A stretch of 47,471 bases of DNA from positions 1 to 47,471 of the IMG/VR virus record IMGVR_UViG_2541047941_000003; one strand, written 5' to 3'. The DNA is from a virus. Its lineage: Duplodnaviria; Heunggongvirae; Uroviricota; Caudoviricetes. Position numbers and translations under genes: made by a program. Of the stretch, positions 12,715 through 19,086 are shown piece by piece; positions within the stretch are counted from its first letter, which is position 1, and each line of letters opens with the position of its first letter. The notes beneath the pieces are model-generated. The model saw nothing but the letters and a program-made list of their open reading frames with translations, did not search any database and had not been told where the DNA came from.

Positions 12715-12918
12715 ATGTCAAAGTCACCAATGAAACTCATGCTACGGGCATGGAACAAAGAGCTTAAAAATCCAGAATGGGGCATGGGCAATCGTAAACA
12801 CCGCAAAGCTTGTGCTCGTGATTTTGCCGGAGCCAGCATAGAAACCGATGCTGATATCCCTAACCAAGCCGAAGCAGATGACCGCCTGGCGGAAGAACTT
12901 ACTTACTGGACGGACTAA
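12715..12918 (+). CDS. Hypothetical protein
   Basis: 67 aa ORF. Confidence 0.35.
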   Translation: MSKSPMKLMLRAWNKELKNPEWGMGNRKHRKACARDFAGASIETDADIPNQAEADDRLAEELTYWTD

Positions 12919-12921
12919 CCC

Positions 12922-13245
12922 ATGACAACTAACCACCCGGCGCACGGTCATGTATCACTCGATCGCCTGCACCAGATACGCGAAATACTCAGCAAAGCAT
13001 CCGCACAAAGCGACGGCGGTAATCTCGGCTACGCAATGGCTGATGCTGTGAAGGTGATTGATGAAGTGCTGGCGGCGCGCGCTGAAACCGTGAAGCTGCC
13101 GGCAGGGTACAACGTCCGACCTGGGCATCCAATTAACGAATCAGAGCGCGGCGTAATGATCCCCAAAGATAACGGCCAATGGCTTTCGCGTTTCGACGTT
13201 GAGCATGCCCTGCGAGTGGCGGGCGTCAGATTTAAGGAGGACTGA
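12922..13245 (+). CDS. Hypothetical protein
   Basis: 107 aa ORF. Confidence 0.35.
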   Translation: MTTNHPAHGHVSLDRLHQIREILSKASAQSDGGNLGYAMADAVKVIDEVLAARAETVKLPAGYNVRPGHPINESERGVMIPKDNGQWLSRFDVEHALRVAGVRFKED

Positions 13246-13502
13246 TGGAACCTCAACTGGAATACGCCACGAAACGCATCGTCGAACTGGAAAACCTGCT
13301 GCTGGTGGATGTGACCGAAACCGTCTGGCCTGCTGAGGTGGGAATGGTATATAGCCAGATTGAAAGTGCCGGGGATCTCCCGGCGCATCACCAGCGCCGC
13401 CTGAAGCATCACATCAACCGTATGTGGCTGGAGAAAATGCCGGTACCAGCCATCGTAAACGCCGCCCAGTCACTGGCCACCGCTATGGAGAAATACGCGT
13501 GA
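13245..13502 (+). CDS. Hypothetical protein
   Basis: 85 aa ORF. Confidence 0.35.
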   Translation: MEPQLEYATKRIVELENLLLVDVTETVWPAEVGMVYSQIESAGDLPAHHQRRLKHHINRMWLEKMPVPAIVNAAQSLATAMEKYA

Positions 13503-15382
13503 GAGAAATCATCGTTGATAACTTTGCCGGCGGCGGCGGGGCGAGCACGGGCATTGAGCTGGCGATCGGTCGTAGTGTGGATATTGCGATTAACCACGAC
13601 CCGAACGCTGTTGCGATGCACACTACGAACCACCCGGATACACTGCACTACTGCGAATCGGTGTTTGATGTCGATCCCATCGTAGCGACCGCTGGCCGCC
13701 CGGTGGGGCTGGCATGGTTTTCCCCTGATTGCCGTCACTTCTCAAAGGCTAAAGGTTCAAAGCCGGTAGAGAAAGAGATTCGTGGTTTGGCGTGGATTGT
13801 CATTCGCTGGGCGCTGGCGGTACGTCCCCGTGTGATGATGCTGGAGAACGTTGAAGAGTTCCGCACCTGGGGGCCGCTTATCGAATCTGCTGATGGTGGG
13901 TTACGTCCAAATCCCCTGCGTACTGGTGAGACCTTCGAGGCTTTCTGCGGCATGCTATCCGGTGGTATTCCTGCCGGTCATCCGGCGCTGGCGGAGTGCT
14001 GCGAGTTCCTGGGTATTACTGCCGACGGCGAACTGGCGCAGCAACTGGTGGCCGGGCTGGGTTACGCTGTTGATCATCGTGAGCTGCGCGCCTGCGACTT
14101 TGGCGCACCGACCATCAGGAAGCGTTTCTTCATGGTAATGCGTTGCGATGGTATGCCGGTGACCTGGCCGGACCCGACCCACGGCGACCCGAAATCTCCA
14201 GCTGTGCAGAGTGGAAAGTTGGCGCCATGGCGTACAGCTGCGGAGTGTATCGACTGGACCATTCCGGCACCGTCGATATTCGACCGCAAAAAGCCACTGG
14301 CTGAAAATACGCTCAAACGCATCGCTCGTGGCATCCAGCGGTTTGTGATCGAGAGCGCGTCGCCGTTCATCGTCAAGTGCAACCACACGACGACCAAAGG
14401 GAAATACGACTGTTTCCGTGGGCAGGCGCTGAGAGAGCCTCTGCAGACCATTACGAAAACCCACGGCTACGCGTTAGCCGTTCCACACCTGACAAAGTTC
14501 CGTACTGGCGCAACCGGGCAGCCCGTTACCGAACCCGTCCCGACGGTAACCGCTGGCACATCAAAACGTCCGGGCGGGAATGGGCATGCTCTGGGTATTG
14601 TTGAGGCAGCCATTGCGCCGTTTGTTGGTCGACAGTTTGGTGCGAGTGTCGGCCACCGGGCAGACGAACCGAGCGCAACCATCACCGCTGGCGGTGGCGG
14701 TAAATCTCAACTTGTAACGCCTACGCTGATCCAGATGGGTTATGGCGAACGACCTGGACAAGAACCGCGTGTGCTACGACTGGATAACCCGCTGGGGACC
14801 GTTACTGCAGGTGGAAATAAATTCGCGACGGTGAGCGCGTTTCTGGCGAAACACTACGGCGGCAACTATACGGGGCCGGGTGTCAGTATGGATGAGCCTA
14901 TGCACTCGGTTACGACTGTCGATCACCATGCAGTAGTTGCCTCTCATCTGGTGAAACTGCGTGGAACATGCCGCGACGGTCAACCATCCAGTGATCCAAT
15001 GCCAACAGTGACGGCGGGTGGGCTGCACGTAGGGGAGGTGAAAACCACTCTTGCGGTCGATGAATACGACGAACATCGCGCGCAGCTGGCGTTGGAGTTC
15101 CTGCGTAAGTACTGCGGTGAGGATTGCGACGGGCTGGTAGATATTGACAGAATCACTTTTCGCATCGTTGATATCGGTATGCGGATGCTGCAACCGCACG
15201 AGCTATACCGCGCGCAGGGCTTCCCGGAGTGGTACATCATCGATCAGGACTATCGGGGGCAGAAGTACGCGAAGGACAAGCAGGTTGCGCGTTGTGGCAA
15301 CGCAGTTCCGCCGCCATTCGCCGAGGCACTGGTGAGGGCTAATTTACCGGAGCTTTGTCAGCAGAAAGAGATCGCAGCTTAA
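13499..15382 (+). CDS. DNA (cytosine-5)-methyltransferase, phage orphan type
   Basis: GTG start overlapping upstream stop; motifs FAGGGGAS (AdoMet), SPDCRHFSKAKG (PC-like catalytic), MLENVEEF (ENV), RAQGFPEWY (C-terminal). Confidence 0.8.
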   Translation: MREIIVDNFAGGGGASTGIELAIGRSVDIAINHDPNAVAMHTTNHPDTLHYCESVFDVDPIVATAGRPVGLAWFSPDCRHFSKAKGSKPVEKEIRGLAWIVIRWALAVRPRVMMLENVEEFRTWGPLIESADGGLRPNPLRTGETFEAFCGMLSGGIPAGHPALAECCEFLGITADGELAQQLVAGLGYAVDHRELRACDFGAPTIRKRFFMVMRCDGMPVTWPDPTHGDPKSPAVQSGKLAPWRTAAECIDWTIPAPSIFDRKKPLAENTLKRIARGIQRFVIESASPFIVKCNHTTTKGKYDCFRGQALREPLQTITKTHGYALAVPHLTKFRTGATGQPVTEPVPTVTAGTSKRPGGNGHALGIVEAAIAPFVGRQFGASVGHRADEPSATITAGGGGKSQLVTPTLIQMGYGERPGQEPRVLRLDNPLGTVTAGGNKFATVSAFLAKHYGGNYTGPGVSMDEPMHSVTTVDHHAVVASHLVKLRGTCRDGQPSSDPMPTVTAGGLHVGEVKTTLAVDEYDEHRAQLALEFLRKYCGEDCDGLVDIDRITFRIVDIGMRMLQPHELYRAQGFPEWYIIDQDYRGQKYAKDKQVARCGNAVPPPFAEALVRANLPELCQQKEIAA

Positions 15383-15481
15383 TGTCCGAGTTTCAGAACA
15401 TGGTGTAACAAATCCTGCTACTTCAATGACGTAGATTCAAACCTGATATAATTAGGCTCTTCACAACACGAGGAGCCTAAA

Positions 15482-15718
15482 ATGCACCATTACATGATCC
15501 CTATCAACGGAACTGTTCACCTGATCAAGACTGACTCTCTAATCCCTGAAGGGACTGAGTATAGCTTTGAAGGAGAAAGTCTAATCTGCGCTCATGCCAC
15601 TTTTAAATCTGGGACGTATGGCTTCCTGATACCAAAGGGAAATCAGTTGAATAGAGAGCATGCGTTCTGGCATGTAAGTGGAATTCACCCTAATCCCCTG
15701 GGAATGGATAAATCGTAA
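15482..15718 (+). CDS. Hypothetical protein encoded in AT-rich insertion at methyltransferase 3' end
   Basis: 78 aa ORF with AGGAG RBS; flanked by duplicated methyltransferase 3' ends. Confidence 0.4.
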   Translation: MHHYMIPINGTVHLIKTDSLIPEGTEYSFEGESLICAHATFKSGTYGFLIPKGNQLNREHAFWHVSGIHPNPLGMDKS

Positions 15719-15728
15719 TCCATAATAT

Positions 15729-15763
15729 GCATGCCATCGTCCTGAACATACGGTGGCATGCAT
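15729..15763. other. Perfect 10 bp inverted repeat (atgcatgcca ... tggcatgcat) hairpin
   Basis: Read directly; 15 nt loop; not followed by T-run. Confidence 0.4.
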
Positions 15764-15989
15764 CCGGCACTACAACAGAAACGTTAAAGTGCAAACAATA
15801 CAATTCGAGCAATATTCAACCTGTCACAGATGGCGAATACCACCGCCATTTCGTGCATTCTGTGGTTTCTATTACCCATTGCGTTAATGCTGTCCAATCA
15901 TCAGCTCGCTGAGGCGCTGGTTAGGGCTAACCTACAGGAGCTTTGTCAGCAGAAACAAATAGCGGCGTAATAAAACATCGCTAATTCAA

Positions 15990-16016
15990 CCCGCTACGGC
16001 GGGTTTTCTTTTTTTA
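15990..16016 (+). terminator. Intrinsic terminator (cccgc-tacg-gcggg + T-run)
   Basis: GC stem followed by ttttcttttttt. Confidence 0.7.
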
Positions 16017-16077
16017 CTACTGACAGAAAATTAACAATTTGTGCTCTTAAAACGTTGATCATTTCCGCGCATAGGTA

Positions 16078-16097
16078 TACTGTATAAAAACACAGTA
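16078..16097 (+). promoter_or_regulatory. LexA box (SOS box) TACTGTATAAAAACACAGTA overlapping promoter of dinI-like gene
   Basis: CTGT-N8-ACAG with AT-rich spacer matches consensus TACTGTATATATATACAGTA; TTGATC -35-like hexamer 17 bp upstream. Confidence 0.8.
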
Positions 16098-16115
16098 CAT
16101 GCAATGGGGGCCATT

Positions 16116-16349
16116 ATGAAAGTTGAATTAACCATTGATCGCATGAAAGAACTTCCTAAAGGCGCAGTACCAGCACTGGAGAAAGAACTGCTTAAGCGCC
16201 TGAATGATCACTATGACAATTGCAGGCTCACAATCCGCCGTGCCGGGGCCGATGGGTTAAGTGTTTTTGGTGGTGACAAGGACGATAAAAAGAAAATTGA
16301 ATCAATCCTCCAGGATACCTGGGAAAGCGCTGACGACTGGTTTTATTAG
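16116..16349 (+). CDS. dinI: DinI-like SOS protein
   Basis: 77 aa; resembles E. coli DinI (VELTIDR..., ESILQDTWESADDWF); LexA box upstream. Confidence 0.75.
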   Translation: MKVELTIDRMKELPKGAVPALEKELLKRLNDHYDNCRLTIRRAGADGLSVFGGDKDDKKKIESILQDTWESADDWFY

Positions 16350-16466
16350 AATTGCGCTTAAGGCTGGCGCGCATTTTTCAGAATACCGCAATTTGCGTAA
16401 CCCTCTGATGCTGCTGCCGACAATCTTTAATCGCGTCTGTTAGTCGCTCGAAGGGAGAACATAAAT

Positions 16467-16715
16467 GTGAGTGATTCAGCTTTGCAAACGTCAGAAGACA
16501 ACTGGTATGACATTGTAAGAAGGTCTGACGGCTGCGTGGTGTTTAGCTTTCCTTCATCGGGCAGGCATCTAATTTATCGCGTCAATGGCATGGTTTCTAT
16601 GCGGCCTTTGCTGGATGATGAAGAGGTCTTTACTCCTAATGGTTTTATGCAGTTTATTCACCGTCTCGGCTACCGGGTAACCCCACCTTCTGATAATATG
16701 AAATCAACGGTCTGA
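16467..16715 (+). CDS. Hypothetical protein
   Basis: 82 aa ORF, probable GTG start. Confidence 0.3.
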   Translation: MSDSALQTSEDNWYDIVRRSDGCVVFSFPSSGRHLIYRVNGMVSMRPLLDDEEVFTPNGFMQFIHRLGYRVTPPSDNMKSTV

Positions 16716-18169: not shown

Positions 18170-18299
18170 CATTCGAATCCTATTTTGCCGATCACCTCCG
18201 CGTTCGTTGGCAACGATTGCGCTTATACCACTTTCCGGGCTCTGTGCTGACGGATTACCGAATACTGAAGAACTACATCAAAACCATAGGCGGTGCAGT

Positions 18300-18989
18300 A
18301 TGAATACTCAATTTCTCGAATACGTGCGCCAGCAGTTGATGGTGGCCACCGCCGATTTAAGTGGTGCGACGAAAGGGCAGTTGATGGCGTGGCTTGAAAA
18401 CGCGCAGTTCGATACGGGAACGTTTAAACGTAAAAAGCCTCGAGTGCTGGATGAAGTGACCGGGGAAATGATTACGCTGGATAACCCGCCAATACCGGGC
18501 AAGCAGTCGCATACCAAGGGTTCGCATATTCCCCTGGTGCAGCCGGTTGAATACTCCAGCGCATCGTGGCGCCGCGCACTGATGTCACTCGAAGAACACC
18601 AGAAAGCGTGGCTGCTATGGAACTATAGCGAGAACGTGCGCTGGTGCTATCAGGTGGAAATCACTCAATGGGCGTGGGCAGAGTTCCGGGAGCAGCTCGG
18701 CGCGAAGAAGGTGGCCGGCAAAACGATGGAGCGCCTGAAGAAGCTTGTCTGGCTCGCGGCTCAGGACGTGAAAGCAGAGCTGGCAGGGCGTGAGACGTAC
18801 GAATATCAGGCGCTGGCGTCGCTGGTTGGCGTAACGCCAAAAAACTGGTCAGAGACCTTTACTGACCGCTGGGTTGAGATGCGCAGCATCTTCCTGCGAC
18901 TGGATAGCGGGGCTTTATTGCAGGTTACGCGATCACGTTCACAACAAAAGGCGACAAATTTAGACTCAAGTCTTGCAAAACTGGATTGA
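18300..18989 (+). CDS. Late-gene antiterminator Q-like protein
   Basis: 229 aa, position between ninG and lysis cassette, followed by tR'-like terminators. Confidence 0.55.
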   Translation: MNTQFLEYVRQQLMVATADLSGATKGQLMAWLENAQFDTGTFKRKKPRVLDEVTGEMITLDNPPIPGKQSHTKGSHIPLVQPVEYSSASWRRALMSLEEHQKAWLLWNYSENVRWCYQVEITQWAWAEFREQLGAKKVAGKTMERLKKLVWLAAQDVKAELAGRETYEYQALASLVGVTPKNWSETFTDRWVEMRSIFLRLDSGALLQVTRSRSQQKATNLDSSLAKLD

Positions 18990-19054
18990 AACGCATATAT
19001 TTCATGTAAATCTGATATCGTCGCCATAGCTTCGTAGGTCGACAAAGAATTAAG

Positions 19055-19086
19055 AGCCTCGCCATCGTGCGGGGCTTTTTTATTTG
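19055..19086 (+). terminator. tR'-like intrinsic terminator (copy 1)
   Basis: GC-rich imperfect hairpin followed by ttttttatttgcg. Confidence 0.5.

Follow-up and report, generated by a model that had tools for sequence, protein, structure and literature searches.

A moron is a promoter-gene-terminator unit inserted between two genes that are direct neighbours in related phages, and such units were reportedly defined for HK97 and HK022 by Juhala et al. and Hendrix et al. in 2000. The modular view of phage evolution is said to go back to Susskind and Botstein in 1978, and for HK620 Clark et al. reportedly discussed in 2001 the boundary sequences, short conserved linkers between mosaic modules. 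A transposable element is recognized by terminal inverted repeats, a transposase and an identical target duplication of 2-14 bp. For IS10 (and IS50) Davis, Simons and Kleckner are said to have described in 1985 a fold-back inhibition of transposase translation in read-through transcripts.

The DNA analysed here, which we call the window, is a stretch of 47,471 nucleotides from a tailed-phage record (IMGVR_UViG_2541047941_000003). It contains a full-length methylase gene whose last nucleotides are found a second time on the other side of a cassette with a small gene; the two copies are called A and B, and the features are collected in Table 1. We consider it very probable that two alternative modules, which in other phages can each follow the methylase gene, have been stacked by one illegitimate joint, that the composite then spread by homologous recombination, and that B is a fossil of the old gene end.

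Table 1. Features of the methylase-dinI region, in positions of the window
Feature	Position	Strand	Remarks
Orphan C5 DNA cytosine methyltransferase gene, full-length, 652-aa ORF	13424..15382	+	Pfam PF00145, PHROG
Repeat copy A	15318..15383	+	Functional 3' tail of the methylase gene; encodes FAEALVRANLPELCQQKEIAA-stop, just past motif X (GNAVPPP)
19-nt core GGAGCTTTGTCAGCAGAAA	15349..15367 (A), 15937-15955 (B)	+	Identical in A and B
Promoter-like element	15426..15452	+	ATGACG (15426-15431), 15-nt spacer, TG (15444-15445), TATAAT (15447-15452); read from sequence
5' hairpin TTAGGCTCTTC / GAGGAGCCTAA	15452..15480	+	Folding dG -16.4, z -6.7; 5' arm 15452-15462
ORF78, 78 aa (PHROG 30079; gp47 of mEp237)	15482..15718	+	Homologues, PHROG match
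3' stem-loop	15727..15763	+	Directly after ORF78 stop codon; arms 15727-15740 / 15750-15763
Orphan AT-rich spacer, 142 nt	15764..15905	+	Found only inside the composite; no methylase homology
46-aa hydrophobic ORF	15830-15970		Begins in spacer, ends in B; MANTTAISCILWFLLPIALMLSNHQLAEALV...
Repeat copy B	15906..15971	+	Probable fossil of the 3' tail from a second methylase allele; 5' side abuts spacer
Intrinsic terminator	15988..16012	+	Stem 15988-16005 + T-run; dG -12.8, z -4.4
LexA box TACTGTATAAAAACACAGTA	16078..16097	+	Exact match, ahead of dinI
dinI-family gene	16116..16349	+	Pfam PF06183 E=3.8e-26; NCBIfam; RefSeq annotation in relatives

The gene ending in A can be assigned to the C5 DNA cytosine methyltransferase family on its match to PF00145 (E=1.7e-19, 70.9 bits against a cut-off of 22) and on the C-terminal motif X (GN.VP), which the translation places before tail A as ...ARCGNAVPPPFAEAL...; it also matches PHROG DNA methyltransferase families. 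Judged from its relatives the gene is itself a mosaic: positions 12908-14607 are 98.4% identical to E. coli H5, and the sequence from 15013 onward is 99.9% identical to phage mEp237.

An earlier sequence-only reading had described the last ~64 nt of this gene as recurring ~580 bp downstream at ~80% identity. The repeat finder gives one direct-repeat family with two copies of 66 nt, 83% identical (55/66) and 588 nt apart from start to start, a match of which ~4e-12 would be expected by chance anywhere in 47 kb. The encoded tails are, as that reading had them, AEALVRANLPELCQQKEIAA-stop for A and AEALVRANLQELCQQKQIAA-stop for B. Nine of the 11 differences between the copies are synonymous and two non-synonymous (pS 0.64 vs pN 0.04, P=7e-5), and this bias implies that the copies diverged under selection at the protein level. 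Furthermore, B-type tails are found as lone single tails in other loci (98% identity in L006, 95% in L005); such tails sit on methylase stubs, and the 3' half of B is also present on full-length methylases. The synonymous pattern and the lone B-type tails together show that A and B are the ends of two diverged functional alleles set side by side. Of the claim that the 3' end had been "duplicated" the repeat stands and the literal duplication falls.

Duplication in place would mean that the last 66 nt were copied as the target-site duplication of a mobile element or other insertion and then drifted apart. It would account for a cassette that is bracketed by direct repeats and AT-richer than its surroundings, but a redundant non-coding copy would not drift in so synonymous a manner, and it leaves the single B-type tails elsewhere to be explained. 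In addition 66 nt far exceeds known target-site duplications, the cassette has no terminal inverted repeats at its ends and no transposase or integrase in or beside it, and its promoter and ORF are also found without a flanking repeat (L040, L039). We therefore regard this origin as highly improbable. A transposable element with a target-site duplication was rejected as a candidate, there being no inverted repeats and no transposase ORF around these 66-nt, mostly synonymously differing copies.

Since B corresponds to a region downstream of motif X, it has no catalytic motif at all, and in one lineage (L008) its frame contains a stop codon. When the spacer was aligned locally with the 3' region of the methylase gene, the score reached only the level of shuffled sequences; residual methylase homology upstream of B was absent. 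The 11-mer CCACCGCCATT at 15840, which resembles an 11-mer just before A (repeat family D6), was for this reason taken as a chance likeness and rejected as true homology.

The order methylase, terminator, dinI without any cassette occurs behind full-length genes in L056 (a 704-aa open frame) and L072 (678 aa), and also behind methylase stubs. The insertion-free alleles which the sequence-only reading had hoped to find among related prophages thus exist in both forms, and the arrangement is not a conserved fusion without such variants. The reverse situation is found in E. coli H5, where a full-length methylase is followed by the promoter and an ORF78 homologue, theta and NinB without any copy B; MSB1_9D has the same downstream arrangement, but behind a methylase stub. 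The composite of A, cassette and B is present in mEp237 and in 23 of 24 IMG/VR loci, among whose variants spacer and B have diverged by up to 13-19%; the 522-nt insert is found at 99.8% identity or more in 32 of 5,426 E. coli genomes. The earlier proposal that a cassette was joined by recombination inside the gene end, leaving the old 3' end as a remnant, is supported by the cassette-free variants, by the lack of catalytic motifs in B and by the stop in L008.

The reading that we prefer proposes the following course of events. Module 1 would be a moron consisting of promoter, hairpin, the 78-aa ORF and 3' hairpin, with its native site directly past the methylase stop codon; module 2 would be made up of dinI with the terminator and LexA box ahead of it, a set that in other phages, too, directly follows a full-length methylase. 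At the left edge of each module the tail of a methylase gene would remain, B marking the old joint of the second. The donor segment would have comprised module 1, preceded by a methylase allele ending in tail A and followed by ~140 nt of unrelated DNA. One illegitimate event would have joined it to the resident genome at a point 66 nt short of the stop codon in the resident methylase allele. A join at this point makes tail A the working gene end and tail B a non-coding fossil. Because the native position of the cassette, as seen in H5, is right after the methylase stop, A and the cassette would have arrived together, and only the right-hand joint would then be an illegitimate junction inside the resident gene; it would lie at 15905/15906. 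A donor in which cassette and spacer run on into non-methylase DNA was not found, the spacer being seen only inside the composite, and the founding illegitimate event is consequently one that we infer and do not observe. The composite would later have spread by homologous recombination, and most of the methylase gene would subsequently have been deleted in many prophages. The A/B direct repeat would also serve as a substrate for homologous recombination, by which the cassette could be precisely lost or regained.

Single-copy chimeric tails are found in WEM25, AR_0119, GPEC60 and M172-1, all of them behind an idiosyncratic replication-P/methylase junction at 15214. In the first three the crossover lies in the 19-nt core, which is the crossover interval of what we call the WEM25-type tail; in M172-1 it lies between the first two polymorphic sites. 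Two different crossover points imply that recombination does happen within the repeat. AR_0118 (with cassette) and AR_0119 (without) were considered as a sister pair of before and after and rejected; their prophage immunity regions differ and they give no direct comparison of this kind. The WEM25-type tail encodes ...PELCQQKQIAA, the protein tail of natural full-length alleles, and could be the ancestral allele that received the cassette by recombination rather than a product of deletion; given the shared 15214 junction, the deletion and the acquisition scenarios each need two events.

This leads to a second alternative, in which the WEM25-type tails are ancestral, the cassette entered the 19-nt core by Campbell-type or double-crossover recombination from a tail-carrying donor or circle, and the repeat is an integration scar. 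The full-length methylases located before terminator-dinI share the WEM25 tail, as this alternative would have it, and the 3' halves of the tails are tightly linked to the module that follows while the 5' halves assort freely, which suggests that crossovers recur at the core in both directions. The donor would, however, already have to hold both tail halves, so the founding illegitimate event is still needed. M172-1 crosses over elsewhere behind the same 15214 junction, from which it follows that the two single-copy types cannot both be ancestral, and among these prophages the composites outnumber the single-copy genomes by 32 to 4. We find this alternative unlikely, and retain the stacking of two modules.

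The intervening DNA is AT-rich, as had been noted, with 42-47% GC compared to 55-64% in the methylase gene. Its promoter-like element has an extended -10 (TGaTATAAT) and a poor -35 (4/6). A simple promoter scan, which permits only spacers of 16-18 nt, did not report it; the element recurs in every variant, also in distant homologues that sit in other surroundings (L006, L039), and mEp237 carries a promoter annotation for it. The inverted repeat of the cassette, seen earlier as a perfect 10 bp, can be extended to a stem of 14 bp with one G-U pair (dG -22.4, z -3.6). This 3' stem is largely retained in diverged variants, whose G-U pairs work only in RNA of the + strand. Having no U-tract it is not a canonical terminator. 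The canonical terminator of the window, the strong one recognized in the sequence-only reading, comes only after B, and the MSB1_9D homologue has one of its own. A search for known RNA families in 15200-16500 gave none apart from a sub-threshold anti-hemB over the terminator (E=0.29).

It should be noted that the cassette has a second hairpin, at its 5' end, which was absent from the earlier description. This hairpin covers the Shine-Dalgarno sequence of ORF78, and its 5' arm overlaps the -10 hexamer. All variants can fold a like hairpin over GGAG (dG -8.9 to -15.5); the conservation was judged by individual folds, the distant homologue aligning out of register for formal pair counting. ORF78 may be made mainly from its own predicted promoter. 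Transcription would start near 15459, ~7 nt past the -10 hexamer, too late for the transcript to include the 5' arm needed to occlude the ribosome-binding site. RNA reading through from the methylase gene would have this arm and would be translated poorly. The start near 15459 and a fold-back logic resembling that of IS10 are what we infer.

ORF78 does have a ribosome-binding site of its own, as claimed, with GAGGAG 6 nt upstream of the ATG. Homologues at 39-42% identity have the same length and share 18 invariant residues, and the homologue in L039 adjoins xis/int with promoter and hairpin kept. The AlphaFold model (pLDDT 80.5) has five strands and one helix. From its sequence ORF78 is predicted to be a real small protein, of a narrow conserved family. 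Pfam, NCBIfam and PADLOC gave no match, the sole PHROG match is 30079, a family without assigned function, the best E-value against PDB sequences was only 0.64, and a fold search in BFVD gave nothing at E <= 0.001; the proposed homology and structure searches have thus yielded a small conserved family and no functional or fold relative. Two Thermoleophilia matches to the ORF78 profile in a scan of species-representative genomes were weak (34% over 56 residues) and are regarded as spurious. Among close variants dN/dS is uninformative, there being only 1-6 synonymous changes. The companions of ORF78 are dinI and theta-like genes, and it often remains where the neighbouring methylase has been lost. 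That ORF78 might be the first of a new class of small prophage effectors (for example anti-restriction, anti-defence, or modulating SOS or replication), synthesized only from its own promoter by way of the fold-back hairpin and acting in the lysogen and not in lytic read-through, is a speculation to which we give a small chance.

The spacer and B together contain a 46-aa hydrophobic ORF, and B could accordingly be imagined to belong to a small gene with a function, whose product, such as a type I toxin or small membrane protein, would use the methylase tail as its C-terminus. The frame is open in the window and encodes a clear transmembrane-like segment, and between the window and L008 the changes in its first 24 codons are mostly synonymous. 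This promise was lost on aligning more variants: the frame is broken by a 1-nt deletion in L033, starts with ATT in L036 and has lost its start in a 51-nt deletion in L010, a failure of reading frame conservation which led us to reject it as a gene and as a type I toxin-like peptide. The frame of the C-terminal part differs by lineage, further variants have many non-synonymous changes, the ATG has no Shine-Dalgarno sequence upstream, and Pfam and PHROG gave no match. The 46-aa ORF is probably not a gene, and a function for B of this kind seems to us hardly credible.

The dinI-family gene is the second accessory module, located downstream of B. From its position next to the full-length methylases of L056 and L072, the terminator is seen to belong with the B tail and the dinI module. 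The window has two LexA sites, the exact one ahead of dinI and another with one mismatch, where 0.02 would be expected by chance.

The locus is ordinary lambdoid mosaicism and a well-resolved example of module swapping. One short locus displays the stacking of modules: an illegitimate joint, homologous spread, erosion of a neighbouring gene, and a repeat by which the cassette may be gained or lost. For annotation, the pseudogene stubs of 99-168 nt labelled "DNA methyltransferase" in many E. coli prophages can be understood, together with the 66-nt copy B, as fossils of one recurrent module boundary, and the 78-aa gene is one that the RefSeq pipeline calls in none of the 32 E. coli genomes carrying it. 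The potential for discovery is limited to ORF78, with its narrow conserved family lacking functional or structural assignment.

A close described relative is the gp46-gp48 segment of mEp237 (NC_019704 / JQ182730), 99.9% identical from A through the cassette and B to dinI. Its annotated features are a C-terminal piece of a methylase, a promoter, a hypothetical protein and DinI; mEp237 keeps a 134-aa methylase fragment, unlike the full-length gene of the window, and its copy B is unannotated. A literature search for mEp237 found no paper on the methylase-cassette-dinI locus.

Like the lambdoid morons, the cassette adds a gene between two elements that adjoin each other in relatives, the methylase tail and terminator-dinI (L056, L072, stubs); it has a promoter-like element, a 3' stem-loop and a distinct base composition, with GC below that of its neighbours, and other phages carry it in different surroundings. 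It differs from them in having on its flanks a 66-nt direct repeat formed by two allelic gene tails, in a 3' stem-loop without U-tract, and in a -10 that overlaps the hairpin sequestering the ribosome-binding site. As with the lambdoid linkers, phages with different downstream modules have the methylase tail, above all its 19-nt core, in common, and crossovers map inside it; here, however, what is shared is coding sequence from the tail of a non-essential gene, and it is present twice in one genome, so that intramolecular loss of the cassette is also possible. The likeness to IS10 lies in a sequence that pairs with the ribosome-binding site and is located upstream of the element's own predicted start, so that only external transcripts could form the hairpin; unlike in IS10, the fold-back is read purely from the sequence, and what it would regulate is an accessory gene of a phage and not a transposase.

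The finding of a methylase-tail repeat around a cassette is real, and lambdoid phages offer well-documented events of this kind; GenBank already has the locus, with the repeat and its meaning unannotated. A repeat search gives two direct copies of 66 nt, A at the end of the C5-methyltransferase gene and B downstream, identical at 55 of 66 positions and 588 bp apart. They form the one direct-repeat family which stands out in 15000-16300, and about 4e-12 matches of this quality are expected by chance in the window. In the methylase frame A translates to AEALVRANLPELCQQKEIAA-stop and B to AEALVRANLQELCQQKQIAA-stop. The similarity to the methylase ends at the left edge of B, and for the 142-nt spacer 5' of B, alignment to the 3' part of the methylase is as poor as with shuffled sequences. 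Motif X (GNAVPPP) of the gene, a full-length C5 methyltransferase (Pfam PF00145), directly precedes A, so B is without any catalytic motif. The recurring tail and the strong terminator after its second copy had both been recognized correctly from the sequence.

Of the 11 differences between A and B, 9 are synonymous and 2 non-synonymous (pS 0.64, pN 0.04, binomial P=7e-5), which is unlike a redundant non-coding copy and marks both as ends of working genes. On the evidence of these substitutions A and B are two alleles and not a duplication made in place. Single methylase tails of the B type exist in other prophages (E. coli MSB1_9D, 98% identity; ECCWS199, 95%), and in the L008 lineage an in-frame stop has arisen within B, with a 1-nt deletion just upstream of it. 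The cassette insertion proposed in the sequence-only reading is essentially right, with two changes: the copies are allelic tails and not "duplicated", and the cassette came together with copy A. A transposon-style target duplication was considered and rejected; terminal inverted repeats and a transposase are absent, the repeat spans 66 nt, and most differences between its copies are synonymous.

Features of the repeat region and its neighbours, with positions in the window
Feature	Position	Strand	Description
Copy A	15318-15383		tail of the methylase gene (13424..15382)
Identical core of A	15349-15367		19 nt
Promoter-like element	TG 15444-15445, TATAAT 15447-15452		extended -10; weak -35 (ATGACG), 15-nt spacer
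5' hairpin	15452-15480		TTAGGCTCTTC pairs with GAGGAGCCTAA; dG -16.4, z -6.7
ORF78	15482-15718		78 aa; GAGGAG upstream
3' stem-loop	15727-15763		14-bp stem, directly after ORF78 stop codon
Copy B	15906-15971
Terminator after B	15988-16005 (stem)		canonical intrinsic terminator; stem + T-run
LexA-box-like site	16078-16097	+	TACTGT-N8-ACAGTA, exact; before dinI
82-aa ORF	16467-16715	+	between dinI and DUF1367/NinB-like gene
isrJ match	19005-19078	+	Rfam, Hfq-binding sRNA; 68.7 bits vs gathering score 37
LexA-box-like site	45636-45655	+	one mismatch; near right end

Between A and B the DNA is built like a lambdoid "moron". It was described earlier as AT-rich with a 78-aa ORF, an RBS of its own and an inverted repeat, and all of this was found again: the GC content is 42-47%, against 55-64% in the methylase gene. 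The promoter-like element was annotated as a promoter by the depositors of phage mEp237; a simple promoter scan did not report it, because the scan was restricted to spacers of 16-18 nt. The 3' stem-loop is kept in diverged variants, with G-U pairs that are functional in the + strand RNA only. Even in a distant homologue which adjoins xis and int (L039), the ORF still has its promoter and 5' hairpin, and the conservation, starting at the -35-like hexamer, defines the mobile unit. No known RNA family matched in the region. A 46-aa hydrophobic ORF running into B (15830-15970) was rejected as a gene, being broken in three related lineages.

Each part of the arrangement is also found alone. Two loci (L056 and L072) have a full-length methylase (open frames of 704 and 678 aa) followed directly by the terminator-dinI sequence that comes after B in the window. 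In E. coli H5 the promoter and an ORF78 homologue come straight after a full-length methylase, a theta-like gene and NinB are next, and a B copy is absent; MSB1_9D has an H5-like downstream arrangement behind a methylase stub. The A-cassette-B composite, with terminator and dinI behind it, occurs in phage mEp237 (99.9% identical to the window), and the composite is present in 23 of the 24 IMG/VR loci encoding ORF78; the 522-nt insert at >=99.8% identity is carried by 32 of 5,426 complete E. coli genomes. Several lineages keep the arrangement despite 13-19% divergence in spacer and B, and a different gene after B in one diverged lineage places the end of homology at the stop codon of B. Two alternative downstream modules are therefore stacked in the window, and a methylase tail stands at the left edge of each.

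The dinI module looks SOS-regulated, as predicted from its LexA box; two such sites were found in the window against 0.02 expected by chance. The 82-aa ORF beyond dinI matches PHROG 340 and PHROG 1813 (unknown function) and is a hypothetical protein in the annotation of all relatives. The isrJ match lies just 3' of an ORF (18207-18989) that takes the place of antiterminator Q in related loci.

Remnants of the methylase are common. In mEp237 it is reduced to a C-terminal fragment of 134 aa; some 30 Rac-like prophages of E. coli retain just its last 168 nt, which abut the replication P region at 15214; and in other dinI modules the stub measures roughly 33 to 105 nt. These remnants make the methylase tail a recurrent module boundary, and many RefSeq pseudogene calls "DNA methyltransferase, incomplete" are fossils of this boundary. 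The 15214 junction is identical in the prophages sharing it (L002/L043 and relatives), with replication gene P and ~74 nt before the 168 nt, and a RefSeq call, the 66-aa hypothetical protein WP_001299077.1, spans the joint.

Four E. coli genomes have the 15214 junction with a single tail and no cassette. The tail of WEM25, AR_0119 and GPEC60 is A-type until the 19-nt identical core and then B-type, while M172-1 switches between the first two polymorphic sites; with two distinct crossover points, recombination must have happened at least twice inside these 66 nt. As the source of the single-copy tails we favour recombination between A and B that looped out the cassette. The WEM25-type tail could instead be ancestral and the cassette gained by homologous exchange, and natural full-length methylases do share its ...PELCQQKQIAA ending; each scenario takes two events, so that this count favours neither direction. 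In both, the methylase tail serves as a site of homologous recombination.

The simplest origin of the composite would be a single illegitimate joint at 15905/15906, by which a segment with methylase, tail A, moron and spacer would have been joined to a resident genome at a point 66 nt short of the stop codon of the resident's own methylase. The joint is inferred, because no donor in which the spacer runs on into other DNA was found in searches that took in the 5,426 complete E. coli genomes. The methylase gene is itself mosaic: 12908-14607, which takes in the first ~1.2 kb of the gene, matches E. coli H5 at 98.4% identity and 14615-15459 at only 79%, and starting at 15013 the match to mEp237 is 99.9%. 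This fits a composite spreading by homologous crossovers inside the gene.

Judged by sequence comparison, ORF78 is a genuine gene: its length and 18 invariant residues are kept in homologues of 39-42% identity, and four credible relatives, one a fusion protein, came out of an exhaustive search through 1.8 billion cluster representatives. The fusion, a 142-aa predicted protein (P0003), has a YdaT-toxin-like N-terminus (Pfam PF06254) fused to the last 60 residues of ORF78, and is another mosaic joint, inside the ORF. The 32 RefSeq E. coli genomes have no annotated feature over the insert, so that a conserved 78-aa gene is systematically unannotated in them; the counterparts in mEp237 (gp47) and MSB1_9D (a diverged homologue) are annotated. 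Between the window and L008 the ORF78 segment (15349-15720) is 97.9% identical, far more than its flanks, with 86.8% for the spacer, 81.5% for B and a reduced identity also over the 5' half of A. The pattern suggests that the ORF78 segment is a recent exchange tract with the 19-nt core as its left end.

Of the whole locus, only the uncharacterised ORF78 family and the chance that its translation is promoter-specific call for experimental work. Pairing in the 5' hairpin buries the Shine-Dalgarno sequence, and the -10 hexamer overlaps the 5' arm, a geometry present in all three diverged lineages. A transcript starting ~7 nt past the -10, near 15459, would be without most of this arm and leave GAGGAG free; in read-through transcripts from the methylase gene the full 11-bp stem would form. 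ORF78 is thus probably expressed mainly from transcripts of its own promoter, while in read-through the RBS would be hidden. The geometry resembles that of the fold-back inhibition of the IS10 transposase.
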